A stretch of DNA of 62,200 nucleotides, filler included, from Kipferlia bialata (taxonomy: Eukaryota), in NCBI GenBank assembly GCA_003568945.1. It is 5 parts of 5 records of this genome, joined end to end, with 100 filler letters (N's around TTAATTAATTAA, not from the genome) between each part and the next. Parts side by side here need not be neighbours in the genome. Positions count along the whole stretch, not along the records: positions 36,000 to 53,862 come from BDIP01000504.1; 4 more parts are not named here. One strand, 5' to 3'. The translations under genes and the position numbers were made by a program. How positions within the stretch are numbered: the stretch's first letter is position 1; the number at the start of each line of letters is the position of its first letter. Below the pieces are notes generated by a model, which did no database searches, had not been told where the DNA came from, and saw nothing but the letters and a program-made list of their open reading frames with translations. Below are positions 22,179-60,410 of this stretch, one piece after another.

Positions 22179-22218
<40 letters not shown>

Positions 22219-22304
22219 ATTACCATGCTAACGTCAGTACATCCCTCCATCATATCCAGGCTGTCTCTCTCTCTCTCTCTCTCTTCCTCTCTCCCTTACC
22301 CCCA

Positions 22305-24194: not shown

Positions 24195-24225
<31 letters not shown>

Positions 24226-25125
24226 CTCTTCCCCACTGTATATATTTATGTGTGACACCAGGCCGGCCTTTGCGACCCCTCCCTACCAGATGCACATGCA
24301 CATGCAGCTAGGAAGGGAGAGAGAGAGAGATACAGAGATGGGGGACACCCAGAACCCACTCTTCTCACACAGGAGGAGGGAGAGAGAGAACCCCCTCTTC
24401 AGGTGGATAATTACATATATGTATTATGTACACCTTATGATAATTAGTGTATGTATTCTAACACTCAGGGAGATGACAAGACAGCAGCGGGAGAGAGAGA
24501 GAGAGAGGGCCAAGCAGAGAGACAGGGAGAGAGAGAATGATCTGCTGGACCTGACAACACTGCCAAGGGTATGTGGTATATTATATATACTTATATACGT
24601 ATACACACACATATATATATGGATGTATATATATATGTGACCTGCTGGACCTGACAACACTGCCAAGGGTGTGTGGTACTGTCATATCTACCTATGTATA
24701 GCAAAGAGGTGGTGTATTGGCTGTCTAGAGCAGGCAAGTATTCAAACACACACATATATATAGCTGATAATTGCGTACATTTATATAACTGATATTTATA
24801 CATTATTAGTATATCTCTTCCCTCCTTGGTATGTATTTCTGATACGTTCATGCATTATATATCTCTCCAGGCCTGTATCTTTGGCGATGCAGACAGACTC
24901 CTCAGCCACCTGTGTACCCTTTCTCTCTCTCTCTCTCTCTCTCTCTCCCCCTATATATAGATATATATATATCTGAGGTCGTCACTTCCATTACTTATGC
25001 ACTAGGCATGTATCTTTGGCGATGCAGACAGACTACTCGAGTGCATAGAGAGGGCGAGGTACTGATGTACTTATATATACAATTATATTGCTATATATAT
25101 ATATATATACATATTTATTATATAT

Positions 25126-25158
<33 letters not shown>

Positions 25159-27391
25159 GGGACAGGCTCCTCGAGTGCATAGAGAGGGCAAGGTACTGAT
25201 ATACTCATGGTTTTTATATATGTATGTATATATATTGTGTTGTTTATTATATATGTATATATATATGTATATGTATATATGGTCCGAATTGTATTTCATA
25301 TATGTATATATGGCACGTTCCGATCACGTTAGTCGTTCATAAGTGGTGCTGCATACATATGTCCCTTCCTCTGTTATGTGTAGCATGAGGGTGTCTTTGC
25401 TTGATATATGTGAATGTTTGTATATGTATATATAGGTATCGATATATTCCTCCTATGCATATCCACCCCCTAGGATGAGGGTGTCTCCCTCAGCACATGC
25501 TATTTACATGCCATATACATGCATTGTCGTATATTTATGCCCCTTCCTCCTCACCCTAGGATGAGAGCGTCTCTGCCTCAATGTTATATATAAATGAATA
25601 TGAATATGTATATAGGTATAGGTATTAATATGTACATAATCGCCCTCTGACCACTAGGATGAGGGTGTCTCTGCCTGGAATGCTCAAGCCGGTGCTGGTC
25701 GAGATATACCAAGGTATGTATACAGCTATTTGTGGTATCTGACCCGTGATACTGATACTGATACTGGTCGAGATATCCCAGCTGACCCTTGACGAGGGGG
25801 GTATTGAGGGGGGATTCTGTGACATATGCCATCGGTATATTCATGTAATATTTGTGTGTCCTTCTATATGACCCTCAAGAAGAGGATATACAGATGTATA
25901 TACACATGTATATATTATTCATGGTATATATATATGTCCTTCTATATGACACTCTAGATGAGGATATACACATGTGTATGTATTATTCATTGTTTAATAC
26001 TCATGTATCTGACCCCGAGGTGAGGATGAACCAGCCCATGTCAAATACTATAGTGTGTACACGCATATGTATATATCTACATTAATACATGGCTGTATAC
26101 GCATAGGACTGACCCCCAGATGAGGATGACCCCACCCAGCCCCCCAGAGGCACACTGACAAAGCAGGGGGTGTTGGCAGGTATGGTCTATGTTGGATTTT
26201 CCAGACAGTGCATAGTGTGTTCTGTCAGTATCACTATCAGAATACTATTCTCTATGATGTGTTGAAGCATGCCGCTCGGTATGTCTTTTACCCTGCTTCT
26301 GTCTAACCCACTAGGTGCCTCTGGGGGCAGGTATCTGACCGTGGCCAGGGTTGTGATGGACTGCACCAGGTATATCAGTATATAAATATACATATACCTA
26401 TCCTGATACTGATACTTATACTAATACCAGGTATATCAGTATATATAGTATATATATCAATAATATATATAATATATACACACAATAATATATATAATAT
26501 ATAAAGATACTGATACTGATACTAAGGGTTCTGATGGACTGCACCACGTATCAGTATCTATACATATATCAATAGTTTTTATATTTACTGATACTGATAC
26601 TGATACCAGGGACAGAGACTCCTACACAGACGGTCTGTGCACAGGGGTACTCACTAGCGTCAGGTACTGTTATAGCTAGTATGATGCATGGTATATGATA
26701 CTAGTATGTGCATGTATATACATATGATACCAAGTATGAAGTATACACTCATAGACTGTGCACGGGGGTGCTCACTATCGTCAGGTATATTGGTACTATT
26801 ATGTGCTTGGCCTGTGGGCAGAGCAGGGCGTGTGAAGAAATACACTATTCTATCATATTTTCAACCTCTCTCATGTCACTTCTCAGTATCAGTATCAGTA
26901 TGCTGATACTTCTCTAACCACCCAGGCAGCGTCTTGTGAGGAGTGCTGACATCGTGCACTGTACGTTGGTCGTAAGGGGTACGGGGGAGAGACATGCAGA
27001 CGGAAGGGCAGGTATATTGGATGTATACACAATGTGTACATACAGTTGTTATGTTGTTGGTGCCATCGCAGTTAGGATCCGACCAGCGTTCTTCTTGTGT
27101 CTTGTACCCAAGTGTCATACTCCTTTCTGTTCAATGAACTTATAAGTCACCCATCTCTCACACAAGGTGGAATCTATCCTCGCACGGTCTGTACTATATA
27201 TGTAAACATTTATGTTGTGTTCGTATACCCTCTCACAGCAGGTGGTGGCGAGAAGGGTCTGTACAAGGCATGCAGAGATGCCGGTATAGTGCTGCTGCAT
27301 GACAGAGTAGGTACCTACGTCTGGTATTGAGTGTTTACCTACTAATTGGGTCATATCCATATTTGCCGTGTATTTGTCTTTGCCATTAGCT

Positions 27392-27428
<37 letters not shown>

Positions 27429-30400
27429 GTCTCTCCCCCCCTCACCCCAGTCTCTGGCATTGACAGTGACACTGTCCTCCTCGATGATGGGAGCCAGGTG
27501 GGTATATATCCACGAGATATTGTATATACAATACACTACTAATGTTTATACTTATGAGTATACTATTGGTAGTGACACTGTGCTGCTGGACGATGGGAGC
27601 CAGGTATTCATGCTCTATTTGTATGTAATATATACTATATAATATACACTATTGATATAATATAGGTAGTGACACTGTGCTGCTGGATGATGGGAGCCAG
27701 GTGGGTAGGGATGTGTATATGTACTCCCTCTACATATATTCTCCTTTGGTGATATCCATATATATATCTATCTATATATATATTTATCTTTGTCTATATA
27801 TCCATATATATATATCTATATATCTATTTATATCTTTGTGATTGCTTAGCCATCTCACCCCCAGCTGAAGTATGACATGTTCATTGCCATGACCCCCTCC
27901 AGACCCCACCCAGTCACTGTGTCCCTGGCCCTGTCCTTATCAGAGACAATGACAGGGGCAGAGAGGGCACTCAAGTGGAGGTATATGCTGTATATATATA
28001 TATATATGTATGTATATGTATGTATATAGTGAGAGAAAATGACAGGGGCAGAGAGGGCACTGAAATGGAGGTACACTACTCTGATATACTATACTGAGTA
28101 TAATGTACTGTATATATATCAGAGAACATGACAGGGTAGAGAGGGCACTCAAGTGGAGGTATTGCATGTCTACACTTGTATTTGAAAATGTCATCAGCGA
28201 CAATGGCAGGTTCAGACTCCTTAACATATAGCTACGGATACGCAACGGGAGAGAGATAATATATATATATATATATATATATATGTGTATGATATATCCC
28301 ATTGACCCCAGGGATGCCCAGCGTGAGAGAGAGAGGGCCAGGCTGAGTCAGTACCTATCAGAGGACTCAGAGGAGTCAGACATGACATCCGTCAAGGTCC
28401 CAATCAGTTTACAGGTATGTATAGATGATATTTGGTGGTGCGAATGGGATAGTGTAGATTATTACTACCACTGTCAATATCACATATCATGTATCTATTT
28501 TCTTTCTTCACATGAGTAATTGATATGCTCTTTTTCTTTCCCTGGGGTGAGCTCTTTTCCCTATCGTGTCTCCATTCAATACCATGTCATATGACCCCAG
28601 GTTAATGAGTTCCTTGAGCTCTGTCCGAGGGCTTATTCCAATGCATTTGCAGTGGGTACGTGTTCAGTATATTATATATTATAATTATTTCTATATTAGT
28701 ATAATAATAATAATTATTATTATTATTAATCAGCATATTGCCTCAAATGCATTAACGTGTATACATTCTTCCTGTGCTGTGTTCCACCTCATCAGCCTCA
28801 TCTGGCACTCAGTCAGTCTCTCTCTCTATCTGTCTTATCCCCGGGCCCCGTCCTGTCCCATCCTTCTGACCAGTATTATATGTAAAATACACTGCTTCCT
28901 ATATATACAACACATATATATGCACTCTAACCCCCAGGCCCCTCTGCCACCCCCTCCTGCCCCATACCCCGCATGTGTCTGGGACCCACACACATGTGAG
29001 TATCAGTATTGTGTATAGTATATATATATATATGGTATATATATACTACACAATATATATACAATATATATATATACTGTATAGCATTACTATATGACCA
29101 TTATACATCCCCACATGTGTCTGGGACCCACACACATGTACGCGACACCCAATAGTAGTATTCTGTGTATACGTGCCTTATATAGATATACCGATGCCTA
29201 TATTATCTACTTCCATACTCTATTCACCTCACATGTGTCTGGCATCCACACAGATGTGAGTAGTATCACTATACTGCTATTACTATACTTATATATGGAA
29301 TGTATCCCCATATGCCCTCCCTCCTCATCTGTTACTCTGCCATCCCCCTTTCATTTTAACTATTCATTTTACCTCTACTGTGTATTGTGTTTCCATATCC
29401 CACTTATCACTTCTCCCTGTACGAGTATCTGCCCGTATCCTCAGTTCTCAGGCCCACCGATGCCTCCTTCGACGGTGTATATGGTATATATACACTACAC
29501 AATATATACACAATATATATACATATATATATATATCCATGCCCTAGTCTCTGCCCTTATCCCAGGCCCACCGATGCCTCAGTATCAGTATCAGTTAGAC
29601 TATTCATTTAACATGATACACTATATATATATATATATCCATGTACTGGTATCTGCCCTTATCCCAGGCCCACCGATGCCTCCTTCGACGATGTCCACAT
29701 GTACTCGGGCAGCAGGTATATACACATGTGACATGGATAGTATATATATATATATATATATATACATGCTAAATGATACTGATACTGATATTGCCTCCTT
29801 TGACGATGTCCACATGTACTCGGGCAGCAGGTATACTAGTCTGCTGCTAGGCTACTGGTCTACTATATATATTCATGTACTCGGCTAGCAGGTATATACA
29901 CATGTGGCCAGAATAGTATATATTTATATATGCTATATGACGCTGGTACTGATATTGCCTCCTTTGATGATGTCCACAAGTACTCGGGCAGCAGGTATAC
30001 TAGTCTATATACCACTATATACTACTATATATATGCGTGTACTCGGGTAGCAGGTATACATGTGCATATATCCACATGCGTAATACAATAAATCCTTGTC
30101 ACATTGTATTGTTGCTCTCTCACTCCCCCTTTTTCTCTCTCTCTCTCTATCGTTACATGTCTGACCTCCTAGATGGCTAGGTGGTGTCCTGGCCCACAAC
30201 ATCCTGTCCAAGTGTCTCACCTTTGCCCCTGACTTCCACGCCCTGTCGGCATCAGCACCATCGGCATTCAAGGGTATGGATATGTATATATATATATGTG
30301 TGTGTGTGTGTGTAATCATCATTCTTGGTCAGTTATGTATGTTGAACAACTGTCAGTCTTCTGTATCTACATCGCTACCCTATACTTCCTTTCCTTCTAA

Positions 30401-31580
30401 CCCCTCAGCCTGGTCTGAGAGGATGGTACATATATATATATAATCATATCTAACACGGTATATATATATATATATATATCTAACCCCCCAGCCTGGTCTG
30501 AGCGGATGGGACATATATATATATATATATATCTTATCATATCTAATACGGTATATATATATCTATCTAACCCCCCAGCCTGGTCTGAGCGGATGGTACA
30601 TATATATANNNNNNNNNNNNNNNNNNNNNNNNNNNNNNNNNNNNNNNNNNNNNNNNNNNNNNNNNNNNNNNNNNNNNNNNNNNNNNNNNNNNNNNNNNNN
30701 NNNNNNNNNNNNNNNNNNNNNNNNNNNNNNNNNNNNNNNNNNNNNNNNNNNNNNNNNNNNNNNNNNNNNNNNNNNNNNNNNNNNNNNNNNNNNNNNNNNN
30801 NNNNNNNNNNNNNNNNNNNNNNNNNNNNNNNNNNNNNNNNNNNNNNNNNNNNNNNNNNNNNNNNNNNNNNNNNNNNNNNNNNNNNNNNNNNNNNNNNNNN
30901 NNNNNNNNNNNNNNNNNNNNNNNNNNNNNNNNNNNNNNNNNNNNNNNNNNNNNNNNNNNNNNNNNNNNNNNNNNNNNNNNNNNNNNNNNNNNNNNNNNNN
31001 NNNNNNNNNNNNNNNNNNNNNNNNNNNNNNNNNNNNNNNNNNNNNNNNNNNNNNNNNNNNNNNNNNNNNNNNNNNNNNNNNNNNNNNNNNNNNNNNNNNN
31101 NNNNNNNNNNNNNNNNNNNNNNNNNNNNNNNNNNNNNNNNNNNNNNNNNNNNNNNNNNNNNNNNNNNNNNNNNNNNNNNNNNNNNNNNNNNNNNNNNNNN
31201 NNNNNNNNNNNNNNNNNNNNNNNNNNNNNNNNNNNNNNNNNNNNNNNNNNNNNNNNNNNNNNNNNNNNNNNNNNNNNNNNNNNNNNNNNNNNNNNNNNNN
31301 NNNNNNNNNNNNNNNNNNNNNNNNNNNNNNNNNNNNNNNNNNNNNNNNNNNNNNNNNNNNNNNNNNNNNNNNNNNNNNNNNNNNNNNNNNNNNNNNNNNN
31401 NNNNNNNNNNNNNNNNNNNNNNNNNNNNNNNNNNNNNNNNNNNNNNNNNNNNNNNNNNNNNNNNNNNNNNNNNNNNNNNNNNNNNNNNNNNNNNNNNNNN
31501 NNNNNNNNNNNNNNNNNNNNNNNNNNNNNNNNNNNNNNNNNNNNNNGCGGATGGTACATATATCTAATCATATCTAATAC

Positions 31581-31617
<37 letters not shown>

Positions 31618-32295
31618 AACCCCTCAGCCTGGTCTGAGAGGATGGTATATATATATCTAATCATATCTAATACGGTATATATATATATATATATATAACT
31701 AACCCCTCAGCCTGGTCTGAGCGTATGCGTCTCAGGAAGTACCGGTACATTTATATATCAAATATCCAATACAGTCATTATATATCTAACCTCAGCCTGG
31801 TTTGAGCGTATGCGCCTCAGGAAGTATCGGTACAGACTGGACATACAGACATCGAGACTGCAGGTACTTGATGAATATATACATATATATACACCGAAGT
31901 AGAATGTGTATATGTATTCAGAACCATTGTATCTGTGTCTCATGCGTCATACCCCCCTCACCCCCAGTCCAAGATCAAGAGGAAACCCCCCTCGAGGAAG
32001 CATGTCAAGAAGGTAGGGATATTTCTATATCAATGATTCTATATATAGTACTGTACACTTAGACTCTCCAGGATAGCATGTCAAGAAGGGAGAGCTAAAG
32101 ATGTATAAACACGGTATTGATATACTATATTGGTGACTTGATACTATACTGGTAACTGTGGAGGAAGCATGTCAAGAAGGTAGGAATCTATCCACATCAT
32201 TGATTATATATATACTGTTCACATTAGACTGTGAAGGGAGAGTGTCAGGAAGGGAGCGCAAGGGGTGGACGTATATCTGAAATACTGCCAATGCT

Positions 32296-32335
<40 letters not shown>

Positions 32336-35300
32336 CCCCTTCCTCTCTCCCTCTCACCCTCAGGTGTCGCGTCGGTTTGACGTGGGTGTGCTTGAGTACT
32401 GTGCCTCCAGACTCATCACTGTATTCGACAGTAGGTGTCCCAACCCATTTGCAGAGCCAGGTACTACTATACTGTTATTAGTAGTGATAGTGATATATAT
32501 ATATATATATATATATACTATATAGTATATATAGTATATTTATATTTAGGACGAGTGGTGATAGAGGTTTGTATATTATATGTCCCAACCCATTTGTAGA
32601 GCCAGGTGATATGTGCTATATGTCTGTGTATATGAACTGCTTACAGATACTGGTATTATTACTACTCAGAAACTGGTATATTATATGCCCCAACCCATTT
32701 GCAGAGCCACGTACTGTCTGATATACATGTATAAGTGTATAAATTACATACATATACTGGTACTACTACTCAGAATCTAGTATATTATATGTCCCAACCT
32801 ATTTGCGGAGCCAGGCACTATTGTTATTATTACTACTTGTTTGGCTACTGTTGGCATCACTTTGTTATTATATTCCATTTCTTCCTGACACCAGGTTTTG
32901 AAGGCTTTGGTGGACACTCTGATGCTGAGACTGTGGAAGAGGAGGGGGAGACACGGTATGACACTGGGTATGGGAGAGGGTATGAGTCGAGTGAGGAAGA
33001 AGAGTGGCCAGGGAGTGTGTCTATAACAGGCCAAGGGGAGAGAGGGACGGAGAGAGAGAGGGAGAGAGAGAGGCAGGGAGATATGGATGGCTCCCAGACC
33101 CCACTGGGTACCAAGGGTGCTAGAGCCAGAGGGTCACGTGCTGACACCACTCTATCCCCACAGGTACATTTGCCCTCTGTCCCATACTCTCTCTAGTTCA
33201 AGTTAATACTCTTTACCATTCATTTCCCCTACATGTATATATCCTCTCACCCCTCAGACCCTCACCCTGTCCCATGCCAGGAGCAACCTCTCTCCATCTT
33301 ATATATATATATATATATGTGTGTGTGCTCCATCTTATATATACATATCCTCTAACCTAAGGTGCTCACCCTGTCCCCTCTGTCCCATGCCAGGAGCAGG
33401 GTGTTCAGTGCTAGGAACTCGAGTGCTAGGTATAAGTATTGATATGTGTTGTATAAATATTAGTAATTATTGTTTAGTATTATGTATATGTATGTATATA
33501 TATATATATATATATATTCACTTTATTAAGTAGGGTGTTCAGCACTAGGAATTCAAGTGCTAGGTATATATTATAATATTACTAACATATACATTTGTGT
33601 GATTACCTATGTATATTGGAGCATGTCCTTCATACACCACTCTACCCCCACTATTTGTGCACTCACAAGGAGAACTGATAATACTGTTAGATACTCAGTG
33701 CATTTTAGTATGTGTAGGAATGTCTAACACTTCAGGAGTACCCGCAGCGGCACTTCCTCAACCACGACAGGTGCCTCCTCTCACAGACCCCGTGCCAGTC
33801 ACAGACCTGTGGTCAACCTCACCCAGATGGGAAGGTGTGTATGATGTGTGTTTGTATATAGATAGACAAATGGATATGTGTTTGTATATATATCGGAGAG
33901 TGTGCCATAAGCATCAACCTCACCCAGATGGGAAGGTGTGTTCTACATTGACTGATTATTTGTTGCTCGTGAATGGGGTACTATGTATGTATATGTTTGC
34001 GTTAGTTGACGTCCATACGCTGCCTCACCCCAGGAGCATCATATATCCTGTGTGTCTAAACTCTCTAATACGTATGTATAAATTTCAATGTATGTATATA
34101 TATGTATATGTATATAAATTTACACACTAATACACAAATTTATGTATATATATTTACACACTAATGCCTCACCCCAGGAGCATCATATCCAACACCAGCC
34201 CGTCCTCCCCCCTCTCTGCGTCAGTCAGAACAGACAGTCAGAGAGAGAAGCAGAGAGAGACTCTGAGAGAGAGACAGTCTGGCAGAGTGATGCCACCACA
34301 CAGAGGGAGAGGGAGAGGGGTTGATTCCACCACCCCTGCTGCCTCCCTCTCTGTCTCTGCATCCAGACCCAGGAGACAGGCACCCCTGCCACCCCCACTC
34401 AGCAGGTATGGAAATATTTGTTTATATATATATATATGTATATAGTGTTCTTGATGGGTTCTGTTAACCCCTAGGACTGTCCCTGCCATCAGGCCTACTA
34501 GAGACTCCAGAGACACTGGAGAGAACAGACAAATGGTACCTGAGGTATGTGTCGGTATCAGTATTTCTAAGAGTGTTGCTGTCGTGTATAAATACTGTTT
34601 TCCGAGACACATATATACTCACCCCAGCCTCGCAAGGCCCTCTGGCCCTCCACCTTTGGCACAGATGACATCGAATTAGACATGGAGAGAGAGAGGGAGA
34701 CAGAGAGAGATGGTGTGGTGGGTACCTTGCATTACAGCAACGATTGCTATGCTGGTGATGGTGAGAGGGGGAGAGAGAGAGAGGGGCAGAGGGAGCGGCT
34801 ACCCTTCTCTTCCAACACTGCTGTGACAGTCTCTCTCTCCGCATCGTCAGGGGATAGAGAGAGAGAGAGAGACAGTATGGGACTTGGACCTGCAGAAGAG
34901 ATTGGCGAAGACTCCCTGTCTGCATCCCCCACCTCCTCTCTCTCTCCCTCCCCTGTCTACTCTAGAGCCCCTCTGGTGCTATCCCTAGACCCCCAGGCTG
35001 CACTGTCTACTGCATCACGTATAGGGGGACACGCTGCTCTCTCAGGACTCAATACCTCCAGTACCTCTGGTCCTAGGTTAGGAGTGAGTGTCCCTGCCGT
35101 GCCCCCTCCCAGACCATCCAGGCCACCACCTAGGTAATCAATATATATATACTGACAGTACATACTGATGTATATATGTCACTATACTGATAGTGTATGA
35201 TACTGATACTGATACTGACACTAGGCCATCCAGACCACCCCCAAGGTATATGTTTCAATGTACTAGACTGATAGTATACAATACTGACACTGATACTGAT

Positions 35301-35633
35301 ACCAGGCCATCGAGGGCAGCACCTAGGGCACCAGTGCCCATATCTGCACAGACTGGTGTTGGTAGTACAAGCTCAGTGACTATTGGCACATCTACACCGT
35401 CTAGTGGCAGTGGATCCTACTCTGGCCCTATTGGTACTGGTACGATTGTCACTCTGGACCCCCCTACTGACAGTGCCCTGTCACACTTAGGCGACATGTC
35501 ACACACAGTAGACAGTCCCTCTGGTGTAGAGAGTAACACCAACACTGTTCAGAACACGACTGGTGACAGTGACAGAGAGGCCGAGGACGGGTCCACAGTC
35601 TATGGACACACACCACCCCCAAGCTTCTTCTGA
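22305..35633 (+). CDS. Divergent pyridine nucleotide-disulfide oxidoreductase (NDH-2-like, resembling the N-terminal domain of SelD fusion proteins) with a long low-complexity C-tail, about 30 exons
   Basis: GASLHHIQAVK..VIMIS|RTRYTWLDGGVLGYLKGDLDICQ|SRIDVSAFAGWAGARLIIGQ|VSHIDFHRQTV..LHYDVISVGPG; VSGIDSDTVLLDDGSQ|LKYDMFIAMT; VNEFLE..NAFAVG; RAAG|GVLAHNIL. Last exon ends PPPSFF* at 35633. Confidence 0.65.
30398..31810 (+). repeat. Tandem ~85-nt intronic repeat containing a splice acceptor plus exon start, spanning an N gap (30609-31546)
   Basis: Unit ctaaccc(c/t)cagCCTGGTCTGAG(A/C)GGATGG-(ta)n-tcatatctaatacgg-(ta)n seen at ~30398, 30481, 30567, 31547 (partial), 31616, 31699. Confidence 0.9.
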
Positions 35634-35899
35634 GTATATGCTTAGTGTATGCATGGCTGTGTTGGTACCACTCCCTTTTGATCCTGGTTGCCTGATGACT
35701 CACTTTTAACTGTGTCTTGACTCTCGTTGACACGCATCCCATCTGTATATATTCCTAGCATGATTCTTGCTCCTTCTGGCAGGCCTCATGCGACATGTCG
35801 TCAGTAAATTAGTTAGATTGTATGATTCATCAGTAGTCATGAATTGCCATTTGACACAGGGAGGGGGGGGGGGGGGGGGGTTTTATTTTTTTTTTATTG

Positions 35900-35999
35900 N
35901 NNNNNNNNNNNNNNNNNNNNNNNNNNNNNNNNNNNNNNNNNNNTTAATTAATTAANNNNNNNNNNNNNNNNNNNNNNNNNNNNNNNNNNNNNNNNNNNN
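35900..35999. other. Artificial contig spacer
   Basis: N run + TTAATTAATTAA + N run, 100 nt. Confidence 0.97.
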
Positions 36000-36336
36000 G
36001 GTGATGCTAAGGGATCTGGTGGCTGAGAGATGGGAGGGGGGAGGGGAGGCGATGCAGTGTTTACTTCACTGACAGTATTAATGTGGCTACGAATGCAGTA
36101 TCCGACATACACGATAGATCAGGCACCGTCTTTGTTCCATTCTACTAAGTCATACTCCAACCCGTCGATCATCCTTTAGACACAGTATATGTCTGTTATT
36201 TACAACGTCAAGTACTCTCCAAGAGAGGCTGTTCTCTATCATCTCTTTTCCACATACTGTGCTATATGCGCCATATACCAGTTCATACTCAGTGTGTTGC
36301 TATAATTGGTCTTCTATTTGCTGTATAGATATCCAC

Positions 36337-37333: not shown

Positions 37334-37634
37334 ATTGCTTGGTAGCCAAGGCAGCCTTGGCCCAAGTATAACCTATACTCAGTACATTACTGAGCCAGAC
37401 ACAAAACGCAAAGTAATCTATTGCACATACAACTCAATGACCTGAGTATCCTGGTGGCTCCAACCCTATCAGTCGCTAACAACCGCTAAGAGTCATTAGT
37501 TATTGAACACACATCGTGGGTCATCGGTCGGCTTGTTGCGAAGTCCTATTCTGACCCGAGACTGTGAACCTACACAGAGGCTGTCACAACGCACAAAGTA
37601 CGGGGCCATCTAGCTGATCTCTATGACCTCTGTC

Positions 37635-40600
37635 CTATCTCCTCAGCCTCCTCCTGGCCCTATGGAGAGTGCGCCGCTGGGAGGAACCTAGAGGTGAGGC
37701 ATCTATAAATATGAGTATGAAAATATTGGAAGTGACTCCGGGAGCTACCTGGAGGTGAGGTATACATATAAACATATAGTATATAGTAGGAGAGTGCGCC
37801 TCTGGGAGGAGACTGAGGGTAAGCAGGGGGAAATACATATATAGTATACACTATAGAGTATGCGGGCTGCTGGAAGGTACCTGAGGGGAAAGGAGGCAGA
37901 AGAGTAGGTGAATGGAAAGAGACGCACATATATGTGATGTACGTATATGCGATATATATATATATATATATATATAGCTGGGAGCAACCTGTGATATCTA
38001 GATAAGATATATCAACGCACATACATTTGAAACTATTGCATAACGTATTGTACTACATATGACTCACCATCACTAGCGGCAGGTGTGGCAGGGGCAGCAG
38101 CTCCAAAGCCTACAGGTGAGAACAAGAAGAAACAGCGAAAGAGAGTACAATATACATTTAGAAGAGGTAATAGAGTATCAATGATATGCAGCAGCTCCAA
38201 AGCCTACAGTGAGAACAGCAGAAGAGTCCTCTATAGTGTGAACACAAAACAGAGAGTATGAGTGGAGGTACATCAAGCGGCGCAAATGGTAAACGCATAC
38301 CTGATGCGGGTGCTGCAGCAGCGGCTCCGAATCCACCTGATAATGAGAGTAATACAGTTAGCATCATACCTCTTCAAGAATTCATCGAAGATGTATATAT
38401 GACGATGTATGTATATCCCTCTGTACCTGTGGCAGCTGCACCGAACCCACCCCCTGGGGCAGCAGCACCAAAGCCACCTGGGAGTGAGTGATGGCCATAG
38501 TATATACACAATACCAATACGTTCTAGATGAAATAGCCATTCACGCTTCCACATGTTCTGGTGATACTAATGCGAGATTACTGCATGTTTACCTGTTGTA
38601 GCAGCGGCACCGAAACCTCCAGCGGCTGGGGCGGCGGCAGCGCCAAAGCCTAACAGTGAGACTGTGAGATTACTCCAAAGACAACATAACTAATCCATGT
38701 AGTATTTGGATATAATGGTAAATGAAATGAATATGAGTACATCTACATCTGCATCCACATATATATATGTATGGATACAAAGCATGTCTACATCTATACA
38801 TAAAGAGTATGAGTACCTGACGCAGGGGCAGCAGCTGCTCCAAACCCTGAGGCAGCAGGGGCGGCTGGGGTTAGGGCAAGTGATATACCGAGAAGACGAA
38901 GCAGAGAACATCATAGTATATATAGAAGTGTATATACCTGCAGTCTTTGCCCCGAAGAACCCTCCGGTAGAAGGGGCAGCGGCAGCAGCTCCAAAGCCTG
39001 AAAAGGTTAGAGGGCAGGTAATCAACACGTCTATCTGATACACTACTGCAAATGCTTTTAGGTTATAGAAACTATTAAATGTGACTACCCATACCTGAAG
39101 CAGCTGGGGCGGCGGTTGCGGCGGCGGCTCCAAACCCAGTGGTGGAAGCACCGAATCCTAGGGATGAGACTATCACTCAGAAGAGAGGCATCAATACAGA
39201 GGAGTATCAAATCACTAACAAGTACTATGTAGTAATACACACACACACACACATACATATATATACTATATACATATCCATGTACCTGTGGATGCAGCGG
39301 GGGCAGCAGCGGCTCCGAAACCTGGCATCAGTACAAATGACCACATACGCAAAAGTGGCGAAGAGGTCCCCAGGAGAATATATTGTATGTGTACATATAT
39401 GTGTCCATTTGAGTGTACCTGTGGAGGCAGGGGCAGCAGCAGCTCCAAAGCCAGTGGCTGCAGGGGCGGCGGCTAGAGATTAGTCGTGGAGCCGAACGCA
39501 TCAAACATATGTATATGGACTAGTGAGAAGTGCACACATATATAATATACCTGCAGCAGCGCCGAAACCTCCTGTGGCGGCTCCAAAGCCTAGGTTGTCA
39601 GTATCAAGATGGAGAAGGATTAGTGATGTGATTGAAGGAATCATTATATCCACACCAGATACTCTTTAATCTACAATAATGTACAACTATGCATCATTGA
39701 CGTCTAACACACATAGACACATACACTACCCCTATATATGCATACATATACACTACCCAGTACCATATAAATGCATACATATACACTACCCAGTACCTGT
39801 GGCAGCAGGTGCAGCGGCAGCGCCGAATCCAGTAGAGGCAGCAGGGGCAGCTAGAGTGAGGGAATACCATTGGCTGAATATATCTGTTGACAATGCACAG
39901 ATTGAAGATAATATGATATGGTGTGAGTATACCTGCTGCTGCTGCGCCGAATCCAGTTGTCCCTGTAGCGGCGGTACCAAAGCCTGATATGTGAGAACAA
40001 TAATCACACTAAATAACAATTTCAAATGTGGATTGACACACAAAGGCTAAAGAAATATGGCGTATAGAACCTGTGGCTGCGGGTGCGGTAGTTGCGGCAG
40101 CCCCGAACCCTGCACCGAATCCAGTCGCTGAGGGTGAGGACCCAAGTGAGTACATATATGCCTACTGTACATGCAGCGATGAACTCTATATGGCATGGAG
40201 GGAGAGAGGAGGACCCACTCTCAAATATATACCACACACACACATATATATATACCTGCTGGTGCAGCGGCAGGGGCGGCAGCAGCAGCTCCGAAGCCTG
40301 GCGTAAGATCTCAGTTGCCACCAAGTAATAGATATAGTAGACTCGTTCTACGAGTGGCTGAAGAGGTGGCAGATACCCACAAGTATAGAGGGCGAGAAAC
40401 CTCAAGAATGTCGTGGAATAGTATATATCCCATACCTGTGGCAGCTGGCTTGGCGTCTGCGGTGGGGGCAGCGAAGGCAAAGCCTCCAGCGGCTGGCTTA
40501 GCGGCTGGGGGTGAGGTTACACATGTGTGAATACAACAGTTACGTATCATATCAGGAGGACTGCGCCAACGAACAACATACATGTGTATAGTATACATGT

Positions 40601-43600
40601 AAGAGTATGTATATGTGTATATATATATGTAGTATGTATATATATATATACCTGCTCCTCCGAACATGCCTGTCCCAGCGGCTGGTGCTGCAGCTGCGGC
40701 ACCAAAACCTAGACATCAGACTCACAAAAAATAGACACCGTTATTTCGGGTAATAATATTATTATAAATACCCATATCAAACTTCTTGCAAAATCAGATC
40801 TGAATCAATATTGATACCTGTGGCTGGGGTGGTGGTAGACGCAGCGGCGCCAAAGCCTGGAATCAACAAAATATCGAAGAACAAATTGACTCTAATACGG
40901 GAAGAATAATATCACCAATATAGTAATACCCGTCCCAGCTACTCCGAACCCATAAAGAGGAAGAGTATACACCTAACCACATTGCCAAAAAGTTGTAAAT
41001 ACCGAACAGTTCAACTCAATACGTGTGCCATTACCTGTTCCAGCTGTAGCTGCTCCGAACCCAGTGGAAGTGGCAGGGGCAGCAGCGGCACCAAAACCTG
41101 GGGTCATACATGGATAAGGAACTCTTATCTAGAGATTTCATGGAAATAGTCACTATCAGAGTGTATAGTACCTGTTGTGGCAGGGGCAGTGGTAGCAGCA
41201 GCACCGAAACCTAGAAGTGAGATATAGTCAAGACCAATATTCATCACTTGAGTGCATTCATACAAGTAACGCTAAGTATCCATGGAATATATGGAATATA
41301 TATATATATATATATATACCATATATTTACATATTAATACCTGTGGCAGCAGGTGCAGTGGTTGAGGCAGAGGCCCCAAACATGCCTATTGTCAGTGATT
41401 GACACAATACCAATGACAATAGAGGGGGAAGAAGCGATAATGACCGAATGCCGACTGATAACGAAGGGGTACTTGGAGAGAACAGCCTTCGTTGATTAGT
41501 ATAATATAAAGTGAATAGGGTATAGTCTAAAGTATACCTGTGGTGGCTGCAGGTGCGGCAGTAGTAGTGGCAGCAGCGCCAAAGCCTAATGTGAGACTTA
41601 AAAAGGGACACAAGACACAGCGGCGTGTAGATAAGCACATAATGACAATATATATATGTATACATATGCATGTAACAGTGTATACCTGTGGCAGGTGTGG
41701 TTGTAGCAGCCGCGGCAGGGGCTGAGAATCCAAAGCCTATATGTAAGGAGTTGAATAGTTGCCACACTACCAAGATTGTATAATAATCTGCTCCAGGCCA
41801 CTATGATCGATAGATGGTTGGTTGTATAGCAATAGTAAAGACTTCTTATACCTCCTGCGGCAGGTGCGGCAGCTGGTGCTGCAGTGGATGAACCAAACAT
41901 GCCTGGGGGTGAGGATAGGCCAAATACAGTATTTGTACACAGTTCAAACCTAGACATATGAGTGTACTACATAGTATCATACCTGTTCCTGCTGGCTTGG
42001 CGTCTGTGCTGGCAGTGGGTGCTGTGAAGCCAAACCCACCAGCGGCAGGGGCCTCGGCAGGCTTGTCAGCTGAGTGTGAGAATAGGAATCAAGACAAAGA
42101 GATGAGATCAGATACCACGACAGCATAGCTAGATACACATTCATCATGATTAAATAGGTGAATAAATATATAGTATATACCTGCAGCGGGTGCCTTGGGA
42201 GCAGAGAAAGAGAAGGCTCCTGCAGCTGGGGCAGCAGCTGGGGTAAGGAAAGAGAAACCAAAGCAACACCACACGTATGTGTACCCATGCAATCCGACAC
42301 GCGATATATAGAGAGATACATACAGTCAATATTCCTATAGGTATATGCTATATGGTATATAGTACCTGCGGCAGGTGCGGCAGCTGGGGTCTCAGTGGCA
42401 GGGGCAGCTGGGGGTGAGTATATATTCATGATAACAGTACAATTAGAGTGTCCCACACGTATAAACTAAAGTACAAAGTATATTTCAATAATGCTTCGTA
42501 CCTGGTGCCGCTCCGAAGCTGAACCCTCCCGCAGCAGGGGCTGGAGCTGCCTCTAGGGGTCAGTATATACATTGAGTGTCACACTTGTACTATCCTGGAA
42601 CCATACAATGTGGGATCCACATACCCTTGTCGGCCTCCTTAGCGGGTGCCTTGGGTGCAGAGAAGGAGAAACCTCCTGCGGCAGGGGCAGAGGGAGCGGC
42701 AGCTAGCATGAGGGAACAATGAAATACAATAGTAATATATGGACAGTTATAATAACACCATATTCAGATACAGCTATGCATAATTGCATGTAATTATATA
42801 CGGGCAGAGGGACCAGCAGCTGGACATTAGCCTATATACAATGAGCGTGAACAGCACTATATCACATAATGTGTACCTCCGAACATTGGCTTCTCGGCTG
42901 GGGTCTCTGCTGGCTTGGTGGCAGCTGAAGTGAGAAATGAATATATATACACACACACATATATATATATATATATGCACCATGATACCGAACGTGTGTA
43001 TCCGATGGGAATGATAAGAAAGATGAGAGAAGATATAGAGAAATACATGCTACTAGCGAATACGTACCTGCACCGAACATGCCAGTGGAGGCAGGGGCGG
43101 CATCGGCTGCTGGGGTGAGAACTAAGGTACATCAATAAATATGAGATATAATAATAGACCAACCCATTGCAATGAATACATAGTAATATGTGCAAATACC
43201 GTTACCCTTGTCTCCCTCCTTGGCGGGTGCCTTGGGGGCAGAGAAGGAGAAGCCTCCAAGGGCAGGGGCAGCTGGGGCAGCAGCTAGGTATGAGTGTGTA
43301 TCAATACTGAACATGTGACAGTGTTCACATATATATATCTTAGTAGATATACCCCTACCTGTCTCAGCCTTTGCTGCCTCAGTCATAGTGTGTAATAATA
43401 TAGATACACAAATGAAGAGTACTGTCTCAATATATATAGAGACCAATACCTGTCTCAGCCTTTGGTGCCTCAGCTGGGGTCTCAGTCTCAGCCTTCTTGG
43501 GGGCACTGAAGCTGGGAGGGTCAGATTGACTAAGAAACACTCTGTTCACAAACTGTCATACTCTATACCCCATATCCCAATGCGGCATTGTAGCTACACT

Positions 43601-44958
43601 CTAGGATTGGGTATTCGTACCTGAATGCAAAGCCTCCCGCGGCAGGGGCGGCAGGAGCAGCAGGCCTAGAGATGAGGAAAACACTATACCCTACATTCAT
43701 ACTCATTGTGGTGTCAATCCATGTTCTTAATTACTGGTGTCCTTCACAACAAAAGAATAATTCTCAGTATATATAAATAAATGTGTATAATCATAACACT
43801 CACTCTGCTGTCTCCTCCTTCTTCTCAGGTGCCTTGGGTGCACTGAAGGAGAAGCCTCCGATGGCAGGGGTGGTAGAGGGGGCTGGAAGTGAGCTTAAAG
43901 TATATAGGCGATTCTAAACGATATATATATATACTGCCAATACCTGCTGCGGGTGCCGGGGTGTCACTGAATGACACCTTCTTGGCCTCGGGCTTGGCTG
44001 GAGGGTTAGTAAGGTATGAGGGTCAGCACAGTATTAAGAAAACAAGATTCATGATTAGTCTCGGGCTTGGCTGGAGGTCAGCACGGAATACATATGTGAT
44101 AAAAGGGAACACTCATAATAAGGAGAATGAATGGTCAAGCAGTGTTGGCCGGGTCAGTCCGGTATATGTATACATATATATCTAGAGAGAGATATAAAAT
44201 GACTATCCTCCACATCACTAACAGATATATTACCTGTTGCTGCAAATGCTGACATAGTGAATGGTGTCCCCTTGTCCTCCTTGGGCTGGTCGGGCTCAAG
44301 GTCGCCTAGGGATGAGGGATATCGTGTATATATGGTCTGTTAGTATACATGAACACAAATGTGCATATATATATATATATATATATGTGGGTGGTCTGGC
44401 TCAAGGTCGCCTGGGGGGTGAGAGAAGAATTCCCTAGGTTGGTGATACCTCTATATTCATAAACATTATAGTGGAATCAAGGTTATACAAAGGTACACTC
44501 GATACCTAGGCTGAATGCAGGTGGTCTGGGCTTGTCGACCTTGGCCTTGGACTGGGAGTGAGGGGTGATATATATATATATATACAAATATAGTAAAAGA
44601 GTCTATAATACAATCATTGTCGGCCATGGACTGGGGGTGAGACGCGCAAATGATAGATGACTCTGCGACTATACGTATAATAATGTATGTATGAAACATT
44701 TACTCGAGAACCAATATCACCGATCTTGGGAATCGAATGAGTGGTATTAGTTTGTAGTGCATGCATACCTCTCCCACACTGCTGATCTGTGTCTCCCTCT
44801 CCACCTGGGTGGCCCTGGCACCTGCAACGACAGAGGTGCTGAGGCCTAGAGTCAATGAATTTAGTTATACATTGGTACATATGTACACATATATAATGTA
44901 GAGATAGAGACTATGTCTCTGGCACCTGCCACGACAGAGGTGGTGAGGCCTAGTGTAA

Positions 44959-45001
<43 letters not shown>

Positions 45002-45944
45002 CAAGTCCCTGGCACCTGCAACGACTGAGGTGCTGAGGCCTAAAGTTAGTAATGCATTCAGTTTCATATACATTGGTACATATACGCGTATATAAACATG
45101 TATAGAGAGAGAGATTATGCCAATGGCACCTGCAACAACAGAGGTGCTGAGGCCTGGGATAAGAGGGAGAGAGAGAGAGAGAATGAAAGACCTTGGTACC
45201 TGCAACAACAGAGGAGCAACAATAATTACTGTACAATTTGAAATAATATGGAATATAGTACCACCCTGTGCATACCTGTGGCTGTGTTGCCTAGGAACCG
45301 TCTCCTGACCACCTTCACCACTCCGTCGTCCTCGTTCTCTCTCTCTCTCTCTCCATCTCCCTTCTCCTTCTCAACCTCAGCTGCAGAGGGACGGCCCACC
45401 TAGGGGTAAGGACTAAAGTATAATACAATACACTTCTGTAATGATGCACTTAGCTATCATACATGAACCTCAGCTGCAGAGGGACGGCCCACATAGGAGT
45501 TAGAGTTAATATAGTATCATAAATGAAGTACATGACACACATGTATATGCAGTACCCTTACCCTGATGGATGAGGCCAGACTCCTGGACAGAGGCTGGAC
45601 AGAGGCCTTGTCAGAGGGACCTGAGGGTGGGGGTGAGTGACATACGACATAGAACTACCGAATATACACTATATCAACAATATGGAAGAAAATACAAAGA
45701 AAATGAATGAGGGATGATGTTGGTGGAATACTATCACTACCAACAACTTCATTTCGGATGTCAGAGAGGGTCAGAGCGGTACATAGGTATGCGGGTATGT
45801 AAAGACACTTATAGAATACATAGTTGCATGTACTTACCCTTGGCTCCTTGGAAAAGTCCCGGTGGGGCACACATACGCCCTGGGGTCAGATACACTCTTC
45901 ACATGTATATACCGTCAACACTAGCCATCGGCACACTCCCACAA

Positions 45945-45979
<35 letters not shown>

Positions 45980-46360
45980 TATACACACCTGTCTGTCCGA
46001 ATGACATTGTGGGTGAGTCAGGGGTCACCATGTCCAGGGGCTCGGGGGAGCCTGGGTGAATATAGATACTATATCCAATATTGATAAATGTGCATATATA
46101 TATATATACAATGTGTATATAAGTTGTATCATGTCCAGGGGCTCGGGGGAGCCTGGGGGTGAGTTGATATATATATATGTGTATATGTGTGTTTGTGTAC
46201 ATATAGATACAATTCCACTATTGCGGGGAGGCAATCGTGTCAGACAATTGTACTTGTGGAGTGAGGTTACCTGTTGCCAGCTCTCTCTTTCTCTTTGCGG
46301 GTCTCTGCCTGTCCTTCTTATCGACAAGGGCACTCATCCTAGATATCAGTATGGTATATG

Positions 46361-46393
<33 letters not shown>

Positions 46394-46868
46394 TCTGTCC
46401 TTCTTATCGACAAGGACACTCATCCTAGATATCAGTCTGGCAGTATGATATATATATATAGAGAGAGAGAGAGATGGAGAGAGAGAGACAGAGGGAGATA
46501 TAGAGACTCTTGTCGACAAGGGCACTCATCCTAGATATCAGTATGCTGTACAAAGACTTATATGCACATACAGAGAGGGGGGGGGGAGAGGGAGAGAGAG
46601 AGGGAGAGAAAGAGTGAAGTAGCTACCTGAGCACATCATCGAGGGCTGTCTTTGCCTTCTTCTCAGTCTCTGTCTCTGTCTCTCCCTCTCCCTCTCCCTG
46701 TGTCTCTGTCTCCACCTCCTTGGGCTTGGCCTCAAGCACTCTCTGGAGTGAGAGGAATACTATATGCTACTATCATACATAAGTGTATTGAGAAATGATA
46801 ACCTATACATATATATGTATACCTCAGGTGACACCTCCCTCTGCCTCTTCTGCCCCACCCTGGCACTG

Positions 46869-46906
<38 letters not shown>

Positions 46907-47076
46907 CATACATACATACACATACATATACATACCTCTGGCGACACCTCCCTCTGCCTCTTCTGCCCCACCCTGGCACTGTCTGTGACAGAGTCTCTCT
47001 CTCTCTGCCTCTCAATGTCCTTGGCATGCTCAGACACAAGGGGGGTCGGCTGATGTCAGAATATACTAAAGAGGCG

Positions 47077-47107: not shown

Positions 47108-48030
47108 TATCTCAATGTCCTTGGCATGCTCAGAGACAAGGGGGGTGGGCTGGGATCAGTATCTGTATTACAATATACATTAGTGTATATACATAGAGAG
47201 AGCGAAGGAGAGAGTCTCAATGTCCTTGGCATGCTCAGATACTAGGGGGTGGGCTGGGGTCAGCGACAGTTACATTACTATCTGTATATATATGTTCACC
47301 TGCCCCACCCCAAGGCACCCATCCTGACATATAATATATAATATATATAGTACATATATCATATATAATATTTACACTATACCACTATACGATCTATATA
47401 TGGATACTCTCTCTATATACACAATATATGTATATGCTCACCTGCCCCACCCCTGAGGCACCCATCCGGGGCATCACACTCTGCTCCATCTGGGGGGTTA
47501 GGAGATATAATATGTATATGACATGTGATATATAGTATGTGTGTGTGACTAGGGCATCACACTCTGCTCCATCTGGGGGGTGAGTATCTCTATCTAGGGG
47601 GCACACCATAATGGTGCATAGAGAGATCATATCACAGAACTGGCAACAGTCTGTCATATATATATCATATTTATATATCAACATATACCTGCATCTTGTG
47701 GAGGAGTGCCCTCTGGTGGTACACATTGGCCTGGGAGGCACTCTGGCATCAGTTATAGAAGTATACTTGAATGTGTTAATAAAGATCTCTCTCTCTCTAT
47801 ATATATATAAGTATAGGGAGTGGTACACATTGGCCTGGGAGGCACTCTGGGGTGAGGGAGGCGTCCACATTGTATGGCTATTCACTAATCTCTTACATTC
47901 AAGCACAGTTTACCATACATATCCACATACCATATACTGCTGCTGCTGTGCCATGGCCATCTGCTGCATCTGGGCATACTGCATCTGCTGGGCATACTGA
48001 CGGTGAGTACACAATACTAATACAAATATA

Positions 48031-48065
<35 letters not shown>

Positions 48066-49703
48066 ATACGAGTTGTATGGGCATACTGCATCTGCTGGGC
48101 ATACTGGGGGTGAGAACACAATACCTATGTACTGTATATACATTAATGTATGTATATGTATGACAAATGAACTTTAAGAATTGTATGGTCATCTGCTGCA
48201 TCTGCTGGGCATACTGGGGGTGAGGACATAAGACTAATATACTGTATATATATATATATATATATTTGGATGCACTCATATATATATATAAATATACAGG
48301 TACCATACGAATACATACTGTATGGGCATACTGTATCTGCTGGGCATACTGGGGGTGAGGACATAATACTATTATAGTATACTGTATACACACACACACA
48401 TATATATATATGCATATATATATACATATATATATATATGTACCATAAGACTTGTATGGGCATACTGCATCTGCTGGGCATACTAACGGAGAGGACACAC
48501 GACAATGATCTAGTATCCTACAGAAACACCATATACTGCTGTCGGTACTGAATACAAGGAGAACTATACACATACGCCACATTCTGCTGTCACTGTGGGT
48601 TCTGCAGGAATATATATATACAAATAGATAGATTTAGATAATCGTACCATGTACTGCTGCTGGTACTGCTGCTGGTACTGTGGGTACTGCATGTACATGA
48701 CAGGCTGGACAGGGGCCTAGGGGGTAAGAGTGTATATATATACATATAAGGAATATATATATATATGTATACAAATATATTAAGGGTAGGTATATGTACA
48801 TGACAGGCTGGACAGGGGCCTGGGGGTGAGATGTATTCTAATATGCGTACCATATACACTTCTATTTCAATTCACCATGTATATCATGTATACCTGTGGC
48901 TGTGTGTTCTCTGACTCTGTCTCAGTGGAGGGGGCACGCTTGGCCTGATATAAGGGGGTAGAGAGAGCGCAAGTATACCCTACACTATACATATATACCT
49001 GGTGCATAATGGGGTGGAGAGAGACAGAGGTCGACAGGGAGAAAGAGACACAACCACACGCATAATACGGGTAGATGGAGAGAGACTGATAAATGGTAAC
49101 ACTTCCATATACACTACTTGTGTATACCTGAGGGTGGGTGGGGTTGCTGTCCCAGAAATGGTGTGTGATGGGCATATATAGGAGAGAGTATGTAGGTATA
49201 GTATGTGTCATACCTGGGGTGCTGCGGGTGCTGCCTCAGCTGTGGGGGATGCCACATCACGCACAGGCTCTGGGGTGAGGGGAGACCAAGGGTATGTATA
49301 GACACGCATATTAGTGTATTGGTGTATTGGGTGGGTGGGGGGGGGGGGGTAGGTTATCAGAGTAGACATGCACTCTGGTAGCGGTATATACCGGTGCATG
49401 GGGATACATATATGTATGACTAGTATAATGGGACGAATATATGCAGTATGGTACGTACGTACGTACCCCCTGCATTGATCATACATGATTGTAACATGGA
49501 GAGGTCCATCTCACAATAATGAGTATCCTCTAATCATATTCTCCACAAGGTATAAGGCAGCTGTATCAATGTACCCGTCATATATACCCACTGTGTGTGT
49601 GTATCTGCTGGGTGTATGTACCTGGGGATGGCGACCGTCTGCGCCTCCTGAAGAAGGGTATCCTGCTCCTCTTCTTGCCACGCTTCACACTCTCCTTCGC
49701 CAT
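37635..49703 (-). CDS. FG-repeat nucleoporin, Nup1/Nup153/NUP136-like, roughly 55-60 exons
   Basis: Start MAKESVKRGKKRSRIPFFRRRRRSPSP, Q/Y-rich segment, FSFS/FGF repeats, many GFGAAA repeats, terminal exon GSSQRRTLHRARRRLRR*. Confidence 0.8.
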
Positions 49704-53810: not shown

Positions 53811-53862
53811 TAGATACACTGCGGTGAGGGTATAACAAGGATAGGAGAGACTAGCGAGTGGG

Positions 53863-53962
53863 NNNNNNNNNNNNNNNNNNNNNNNNNNNNNNNNNNNNNN
53901 NNNNNNTTAATTAATTAANNNNNNNNNNNNNNNNNNNNNNNNNNNNNNNNNNNNNNNNNNNN
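53863..53962. other. Artificial contig spacer
   Basis: N run + TTAATTAATTAA + N run, 100 nt. Confidence 0.97.
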
Positions 53963-59900: not shown

Positions 59901-60410
59901 TCGACCCAGGTCACCGTGTTGGTATCGGTGGTCTGCATTGTCCCAGGTGGCAGAGAGGGACGCACTCTTGTCCTCTGTGCATAGAGCATCGTCTGCCAGG
60001 AGGGTGAAGGTGGCAGTCTCAGTGACACAGGTGGAGACAGAGGTCAGAGGAGAGAGGTCGGTCACAGTGTACACGGGAAGGCGGATGATAAGATGAATGG
60101 TGGCTCCTTCCCCGATGAGGTAGCTACTCACCGTTCTGCTGTCCTCTAGCTGTTTCCCTCCAAAGACCAATCTCTGGTCCGCTGGTTCAATACCTACTAT
60201 GAGAAGAGAAGATTGTGACATGTCATATAATATGAGAGGGTGAAATGAGGGTAGCTGCTACACCCACTCACCACTGGCTGTATAGACCTGGGCCTTGACG
60301 GATGCTATGGTGTCAGACTCATCCACAGTGAGGTTGTACTTGATGCCTGTGAGGGTCTGGACACTGATACCAATCGTAGACACCTTAGGAGACATGGAGT
60401 CTGTTGTGGC
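56961..60410 (-). pseudogene. Ubiquitin-like domain + three ~290-aa Thr/Val-rich beta-sandwich-like repeats + TM + tail. Frameshift and internal TAA as assembled; 5' exon missing.
   Basis: ISVQTLTGIKYNLTVDESDTIASVKAQV..|GIEPADQRLVFGGKQLEDSRTVSSY.I..GATIHLIIRL. Repeats begin C[VQ]TET. Intron 59185-59123. TM WVPVLIVSVCLLVVVGGGMWCC. Frame break at ~59925-59931, TAA at 57150-57152. Confidence 0.7.

Follow-up and report, generated by a model that had tools for sequence, protein, structure and literature searches.

How does a gene come to encode a long repetitive domain in dozens of tiny exons, nearly all of which begin and end at the same codon position, and is any use made of that layout? The question is raised by a phenylalanine-glycine (FG) repeat gene in Kipferlia bialata, a free-living, single-celled fornicate and an intron-rich protist. 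The gene lies in a stretch of 62,200 nucleotides joined from five records of assembly GCA_003568945.1, hereafter the window; its piece starts at about position 36000, and the adjoining pieces are separate contigs. An earlier reading of the DNA (the original prediction) had described an FG-nucleoporin domain of symmetric mini-exons that might be skipped or duplicated in frame, or might reflect repeated intron gain. On balance we lean towards a Nup153/Nup1-like nuclear-basket gene that is constitutively spliced, whose FG array arose when whole exons were duplicated long ago, composition having fixed phase 1 and the reading frame having preserved it. The layout of the array probably preserves the trace of ancient exon duplications, and its use for tuning is not supported.

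The layout is real, extreme and far from background. The region predicted to hold more than 30 FG mini-exons of about 35-90 nt (38069..44310) resolves into 36 exons between 44305 and 38068 on the minus strand (Table 1), measuring 36-87 nt with a mean of 54 and separated by 35 internal introns of 61-236 nt. Phase 1 is as pervasive as was claimed: 34 of the 36 introns on the downstream (3') side of these exons have it, splitting 19 Gly, 14 Ala and one Glu codon, and the two phase-2 introns both sit in the proximal part. Thirty-three exons are symmetric with 1-1 borders and one is 2-2. The expected one or two strict FG units are found in 26 of the 36 exons, and FG or FxF in 32. For 34 of the 36 exons, removal of that exon alone would leave the frame intact down to the native C-terminus. 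The introns are unrelated to each other, again as described, with a mean local score of 17.5 over 630 pairs vs 16.7 over 2736 control pairs drawn from other genes' introns; the eight top-scoring pairs printed align via AT-rich tracts, mostly (TA)n/(TG)n. One correction to the first reading is that the gene extends well past the array, provisionally from 49703 to 37635. Its part from 44845 to 37405 is anchored by an RNA contig (record 9), and the first seven exons, above 47250, are provisional.

Table 1. Features of the FG gene and one reference gene, in window coordinates. Mirages are tandem copies of splice borders.
Feature	Position	Strand	Basis or remark
Whole gene, 53 exons, 1044 aa	37635..49703	-	Open frame from ATG 49703 to stop 37637-37635
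Provisional N-terminal exons: basic start, then Gln-rich part	47442..49703	-	Sequence and open frame only
Charged middle, 9 exons, mixed phases, without repeat array	44506..47049	-	RNA records 9 and 10; depth bins partly masked at microsatellites
Proximal FxF/FG region, charged spacers, 13 exons	41983..44305	-	Residues 396-640
Distal GFG region, nearly uncharged, 23 exons, all 1-1	38068..41902	-	Residues 641-1027
Run of 31 consecutive symmetric 1-1 mini-exons, 36-87 nt	43283-38068	-	Exon table, RNA joints, length anchors, depth bins
FG-region exons 1-9	44305-44234, 43997-43944, 43882-43804, 43665-43621, 43511-43450, 43283-43206, 43109-43068, 42924-42877, 42702-42625	-	
FG-region exons 10-18	42552-42502, 42407-42366, 42237-42181, 42069-41983, 41902-41852, 41736-41686, 41585-41538, 41385-41341, 41210-41172	-	
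FG-region exons 19-27	41097-41035, 40856-40818, 40708-40652, 40504-40436, 40297-40256, 40127-40071, 39983-39933, 39850-39797, 39589-39551	-	
FG-region exons 28-36	39472-39419, 39321-39286, 39157-39095, 38997-38938, 38864-38817, 38649-38593, 38477-38427, 38336-38301, 38109-38068	-	
Last exon: 17-residue non-FG tail, stop 37637-37635, then 3' untranslated region	37405..37687	-	RNA record 9 positions 2498-2778
Clearest case of an old exon duplication	43283-43206 and 42702-42625	-	Both 78 nt, same borders, 85% identical
Three whole-exon copies (39, 45, 39 nt) of start of exon 47996-47931	48482-48444, 48348-48304, 48103-48065	-	
Mirage copies of last acceptor and exon start (37988, 37880, 37812)	37812..37988	-	Skipped in RNA contig
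Mirage copy of acceptor and start of exon 38109	38188..38203	-	Skipped in RNA contig, joint 38108/38300
Three mirage copies of acceptor and start of exon 44845 (45153, 45039, 44949)	44926..45153	-	Not covered by RNA contig
Young mirage before exon 46338 (copies 46530, 46424)	46309..46530	-	Whole 86-nt unit, 92% matches
Pescadillo gene, 10 exons	7345-9944	-	99% identical to Kipferlia bialata pescadillo; model reproduces deposited protein (P0001)

One possible use of such exons is as cassettes kept for alternative splicing, where a ladder of FG-domain lengths would tune receptor binding or cohesion. The model for this is tropoelastin, whose exon borders are all in phase 1:1 and whose cassettes undergo extensive alternative splicing (PMC12554196). 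The RNA data consist of contigs of run X2, which shares one sample with run X1; neither run is catalogued as RNA, and X2 is a presumed RNA run. Record 9 of X2 (2781 nt, depth 237.6) is spliced, and its GT..AG joints show it to be a transcript: all eight FG-gene joints listed, among the 15 of 44 joints shown, are GT..AG and fall at model positions. Between 44844 and 37685, all 11 of 11 anchors place the record where the summed exon lengths predict, so no exon is missing or added between anchors unless lengths cancel. Further, 12 of 21 depth bins over 37400-44308 lie within 2 letters of the model, two within 6 and seven above it, the excess likely coming from partly matching contigs of depth 296.2 and 181.7.

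Record 9, a single unbranched contig, is the only one that spans the FG region, and in the assembled form none of the 36 FG-region exons is missing; because rare variants are lost from contigs, low-level skipping is possible. The combinatorial tuning by skipping proposed at the outset is therefore not borne out at the level of this contig, and none of the listed joints skips an exon. Splice-site strength points both ways, as acceptors of the FG region score lower than those elsewhere (median 7.8 vs 11.6) but its donors score high (9.9 vs 8.6). The in-frame skips and the tropoelastin precedent fit a cassette role, and the silent acceptor copies described below hint at cross-exon recognition, a mode that would permit skipping; outside animals, however, intron retention is believed to exceed exon skipping (PMC6142364). 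Taken together, we consider retention for alternative splicing very unlikely.

At depths 296.2 and 181.7, X2 has joints that at face value leap over many exons. We rejected them as isoforms, as their ends are non-GT-AG and their sides span 21-24 letters, and they likely belong to other FG-repeat genes because long X2 loose ends unlike the window occur as well. The contigs concerned, at ~38650-39822 and 42222-43231, indicate one or two further transcripts with similar Ala-rich GFG repeats, likely from other FG-nucleoporin genes.

To judge how far the layout departs from its surroundings, we used as background seven neighbouring gene models with 80 introns, predicted and then hand-curated. The set omits terminal exons that were uncertain, as well as two genes whose structure was poorly resolved (22000-30600 and 31560-35700). 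The gene predictor took mirages as micro-exons, and such calls were removed by hand before the background count. With the 52 introns of the FG gene model, this gives a curated set of 132, of which 116 have a branch-point-like motif near the acceptor, the A lying 7-8 nt from the intron end in 89. Fused branch-point/acceptor signals are known in other metamonads, and the introns here are similar (PMC6679479).

Neighbouring introns are distributed 41/19/20 by phase, and 32 of 73 neighbouring exons are symmetric; at the neighbour rate, the probability of 31 phase-1 introns in 31 is 4e-20. The median internal exon of the neighbours is 84 nt, and FG-region exons are shorter (p = 3e-10). Intron density reaches 18.5 per kb in the FG region vs 7.0 per kb in the neighbours. 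Genome-wide, arithmetic on published figures for Kipferlia (124,912 GU-AG introns, 17,389 genes, mean 333 aa; PMC5874029) gives ~7.2 introns per kb of coding sequence.

Codon composition explains the phase partly, but not the density or the register with GFG. Unused CAG sites are in phase 1 in 46 of 48 cases within the 31-exon run and in 31 of 31 within the GFG part. A junction model trained on the neighbours expects a phase-1 share of 0.66 for the run and one of 0.79 for the GFG part, which by arithmetic leaves residual probabilities of ~2e-6 (0.656^31) and 0.005, respectively. The Gln-rich part of the gene serves as an internal control because its seven consecutive phase-0 introns (in the provisional model) follow Gln codons. 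A single gene thus displays how intron phase is set by codon composition: it is 0 where Gln is abundant and 1 in the Ala/Gly/Thr part. Density is another matter. Introns occupy 30 of 88 CAG sites in the run vs 30 of 359 in the neighbours (p = 9e-9) and 9 of 71 in the N-terminal part, so that the density does not, as the original prediction had allowed it might, equal the background once CAG frequency is considered. The introns are also in register with the repeat, being found at the first Gly of G(G/M)F motifs at 18 of 26 AG sites vs 5 of 44 other phase-1 AG sites (p = 1e-6).

These figures bear directly on the proto-splice alternative, in which the FG repeat grew as coding sequence and introns were gained singly later at CAG|G sites created by Thr/Ser/Ala-Gly pairs, symmetry being a by-product. 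That alternative captures much of the phase, given the unused CAG sites, but neither the density nor the register. It agrees with the mutual unrelatedness of the introns, with the absence of a clear synonymous duplication signal, and with a genome of 124,912 introns in which recent gain on the lineage has been deemed possible (PMC5874029). It is harder to reconcile with a CAG occupancy fourfold that of the neighbours, with introns placed in register with the repeat unit, with a pair of duplicate exons sharing the same borders, and with the 31 of 31 that the general junction model leaves unexplained. We therefore regard later, piecemeal intron gain as unlikely, albeit a serious contender.

Exon duplication, which the original prediction had raised as a mere possibility, fits best overall, although the FG array holds no recent copies. 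The clearest old duplicate pair (Table 1) has intron flanks at background similarity. Recent duplication within the GFG array was looked for through synonymous identity and intron flanks and not found; from the low synonymous signal and the lack of a distance trend, duplication there, if any, was old. Elsewhere in the gene, three copies of the start of a Gln-rich exon (48065..48482) are bordered by AG on one side and GT on the other, have phase 0-0 and read in frame with no stop; one further copy, at 48213, is without a donor. Judged by their borders and frame, these are candidate newly born or alternative exons, as expected for exon birth. Consecutive symmetric exons in disordered proteins often stem from internal tandem duplication (PMC3632108).

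We propose that the array grew as follows. Most tandem duplications of ~100 nt would take in a single splice border, the product being a silent mirage. With exons as short as 36-60 nt, a duplication could include both borders and create a new exon, which would survive only if symmetric and placed in a tolerant, disordered domain. Because Ala/Gly/Thr content would offer CAG exon ends almost solely in phase 1, the array would begin in phase 1 and copying would maintain that phase. Fast intron turnover may later have erased the similarity between introns. Three apparent stages of exon birth can be seen side by side in this gene, from border copies that stay silent, through freshly copied whole exons, to cassettes fixed long ago.

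The silent border copies are tandem duplications over an intron/exon border in which the splice signal is retained. They are present in 26 of the 132 curated introns, with 31 copies on the acceptor side (28 with AG) and nine on the donor side (eight with GT). Controls were nearly empty, as 3 of 13534 wrong-gene pairs matched and 0 of 124 exons had wrong-side copies. The exon-like part measures 12-40 nt, the nearest copy is mostly 68-128 nt away from the genuine site, and copy number is low, with 1-4 detected per intron side. In most copies the intron part is decayed and the exon part intact, the search having selected for an intact exon part; the intron tails of 6 of 28 copies score at least 0.75, the 99th percentile of the null. 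Mirage introns number 11 of 16 in the N-terminal part, 4 of 36 in the FG region and 11 of 80 in the neighbours, or 15 of 52 for the whole gene. The idea that FG introns are without mirages since whole exons were captured is not supported by these counts (4/36 vs 11/80).

The mirages within reach of the RNA contig are not used in the assembled transcript. The RNA contig, one only, leaves out eight copies in six introns between 44551 and 37687, as judged by length anchors, and three copies before 44845, as judged by depth bins. Joint 37685/38066 and zero X2 depth in bin 37729-38057 bypass the copies of the last acceptor (37812..37988), and the bins at 44926..45153 contain 76 and 21 letters vs 77 and 20 expected without copies. 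A copy acceptor scores at least as high as the real one in 17 of 28 cases, and that acceptors this strong are skipped suggests cross-exon recognition in a species of short introns and reduced spliceosome, for which 87 of 174 proteins were found (PMC6679479). Recursive splicing is unlikely to account for mirages in general, many copied exon starts being without an initial GT. We also rejected assembly artefacts as their source: X1 contigs (X1 perhaps being the same sample) cross several of them with 0 differences, and the copies differ mutually. Each of the copies at 45153-44926, which the RNA contig does not cover, continues for 24 nt up to an AG|GT inside the exon and might function as a symmetric micro-exon. 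A bolder combination, in which mirage duplication acting genome-wide built an FG domain of 31 interchangeable exons, exons are recognised as units despite ~90-nt introns, and a skipping ladder that shifts with growth state tunes the pore, strikes us as a long shot.

Comparable structures are known in amphioxus, where mirages in Adh3, troponin C, the globins BflGb6/BflGb9 and PGBD5 keep their splice signals and leave splicing undisturbed (PMC3087553, PMC3902484). The minisatellite in intron 7 of human F7, a variable number tandem repeat, is a donor-side case (PMC1557585). The likeness lies in tandem border copies that keep AG or GT and go unused in mRNA. Here, unlike in those systems, the host is a protist, 26 of 132 introns of one window are affected, copy number is low and the intron part of most copies is decayed.

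The protein model is consistent with an FG-nucleoporin. It runs from a basic start through a Gln-rich stretch, a charged middle, a charged FxF region and a GFG region to the tail, of whose 17 residues eight are Arg. Its 1044 residues include 36 FG, 28 GFG and nine FxF motifs, many of them in a long low-complexity region of disorder type. Residues 396-640, which hold FxF motifs, include 42 charged positions among 245 (20 K/R, 22 D/E), vs 5 of 387 in residues 641-1027, where 344 of 387 are A, G, T, P or S. Nup153 has a basic tail, Nup1 is without zinc fingers, and both proteins have an N-terminal pore-targeting region with an amphipathic helix. The model shares with Nup153 and Nup1 a C-terminal FG domain with charged, then less charged spacers, and a 17-residue non-FG tail; in human Nup153, charged proximal and less charged distal FG linkers precede a 17-residue tail that binds importin-alpha (PMC3679279). 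From this charge order and tail, a Nup153/Nup1-like role is likely, and we take the protein to be a likely FG-nucleoporin of Nup153/Nup1-like layout. By analogy, the tail is predicted to bind importin-alpha and the FG/FxF motifs to bind transport receptors. Unlike Nup153/Nup1, the repeat consists of Ala-rich GFG units, with no GLFG, and the FG region is divided into 36 mini-exons.

Several results count against the account that we favour. On the side of origin, strict CAG sites give 31 of 31 in phase 1 with a probability of 0.27, so that composition alone can yield the phase. The register test is confounded, as AG|G makes a better junction than AG|C, and AG|G sites alone give 18 of 26 vs 0 of 4. 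Synonymous identity between GFG exons is 0.378 vs 0.339 expected, with no trend over distance (rho = -0.03, p = 0.66), and in the 14 best exon pairs the flanks show background similarity or close to it. FG introns carry mirages no more often than neighbouring introns do (p = 0.77). The non-FG N-terminal part is also intron-dense, at 14.1 per kb (provisional), and the background gene models other than pescadillo are predictions without RNA verification. On the side of identity, protein and HMMER searches with single exons found no match, not even a deposited model of this gene; Pfam searches with single exons gave 0 of 9 matches, with two control exons from neighbouring genes equally blank; and a PDB search with the 17-residue tail gave 0 matches. 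Queries of 20-41 residues make all of this weak evidence. An Atlas lead, Nucleoporin_FG, scored 0.84, below the Atlas reliable range. Neither paired cysteines nor zinc fingers occur in the translated 1044-aa model, and without zinc fingers the gene is not classed as Nup153 proper, with which it has no detectable sequence homology. The nucleoporin label of the original prediction therefore agrees with the architecture and finds no echo in these single-exon searches.

The same blanks could mean that the protein is another FG-nucleoporin (Nup214/Nup159-, Nup42- or POM121-like) or a non-pore low-complexity protein, the origin of the layout being unchanged. A Nup42 cluster in Atlas, at 0.78, is among the weak leads, and the N-terminal half is lineage-specific and Gln-rich. 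However, the charged-then-uncharged C-terminal FG domain and 17-residue basic tail match the Nup153 layout, and the model, read by eye with no predictor, has no evident folded N-terminal domain or C-terminal coiled coil. A different identity is accordingly improbable in our view, and we retain the Nup153/Nup1-like reading.

The principle of an all-1:1 layout is not new, being known from tropoelastin and other disordered proteins; the setting is. Amniote tropoelastin (ELN) is likewise a disordered Gly/Ala/Pro-rich repeat protein with many short 1:1 exons (PMC12554196). The 1:1 rule holds for every border in ELN, whose cassette splicing is also extensive, whereas here 31 consecutive FG exons follow it and the 16 introns upstream of the FG region split 9/6/1 by phase, the N-terminal part being mostly phase 0. 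Skipping is not seen in the one contig, and the proteins are unrelated. Schad et al. 2013 described consecutive same-phase exons in disordered human proteins (PMC3632108); the present case differs in that 31 very short exons follow one another, the host is a single-celled fornicate and the introns have lost their similarity. A literature search covering few subscription papers turned up no paper on this gene, none on FG domains built from cassettes and none on mirages in K. bialata. Scans of metagenomes found neither the bordered GFG mini-exon pattern, which has four matches in its own window, nor relatives of pescadillo.

The mirages, a side finding, may matter more than the FG layout. In the literature searched they were confined to amphioxus and one human gene, and here they affect 11 of the 80 introns in neighbouring genes and 15 of the 52 in the FG gene. 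The ~125,000 introns of this genome would allow exon and intron gain by duplication to be tested on a large scale.

Copies of this type are scattered over the window. A model-free scan found that 34 of 352 branch-point-plus-AG sites have a near-identical twin within 400 nt, and examples occur at 2683, 3393-3560, 5875-6000, 11548-11660 and 12907-12986, with many in 22500-34200. The gene at ~22000-35600 is especially rich in donor-side copies. At 30380-31790, on the plus strand, a young array of ~95-nt acceptor-plus-exon-start units enters an N gap of ~940 bases, and its copy number may be much higher than is visible. A WD40-repeat gene at 12759-14141 (minus strand) has mirage copies in three of six introns. 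The gene at 18240-21808 (minus strand), which from its motifs we take to be a likely glycoside hydrolase of family 65, has 23 short exons and 12.8 introns per kb, with mirages in 0 of 22 introns.

N runs and a six-frame-stop linker near 17900-18000, 35900-36000 and 53860-53960 mark joins between separate contigs, and gene neighbourhood across them is therefore meaningless. RNA record 10 has a loose end that reads into exon 47489-47442 of the FG gene. At 1-6968 (plus strand) lies a gene with a long acidic N-terminal region and 21 exons in the model, presumably an SNF2-family helicase, the family being read from motifs. Finally, 57150-60043 (minus strand) holds long, near-intron-free frames in which Thr/Ser/Val-rich units recur and a hydrophobic segment lies at the C-terminal end, and its product is likely a surface protein.

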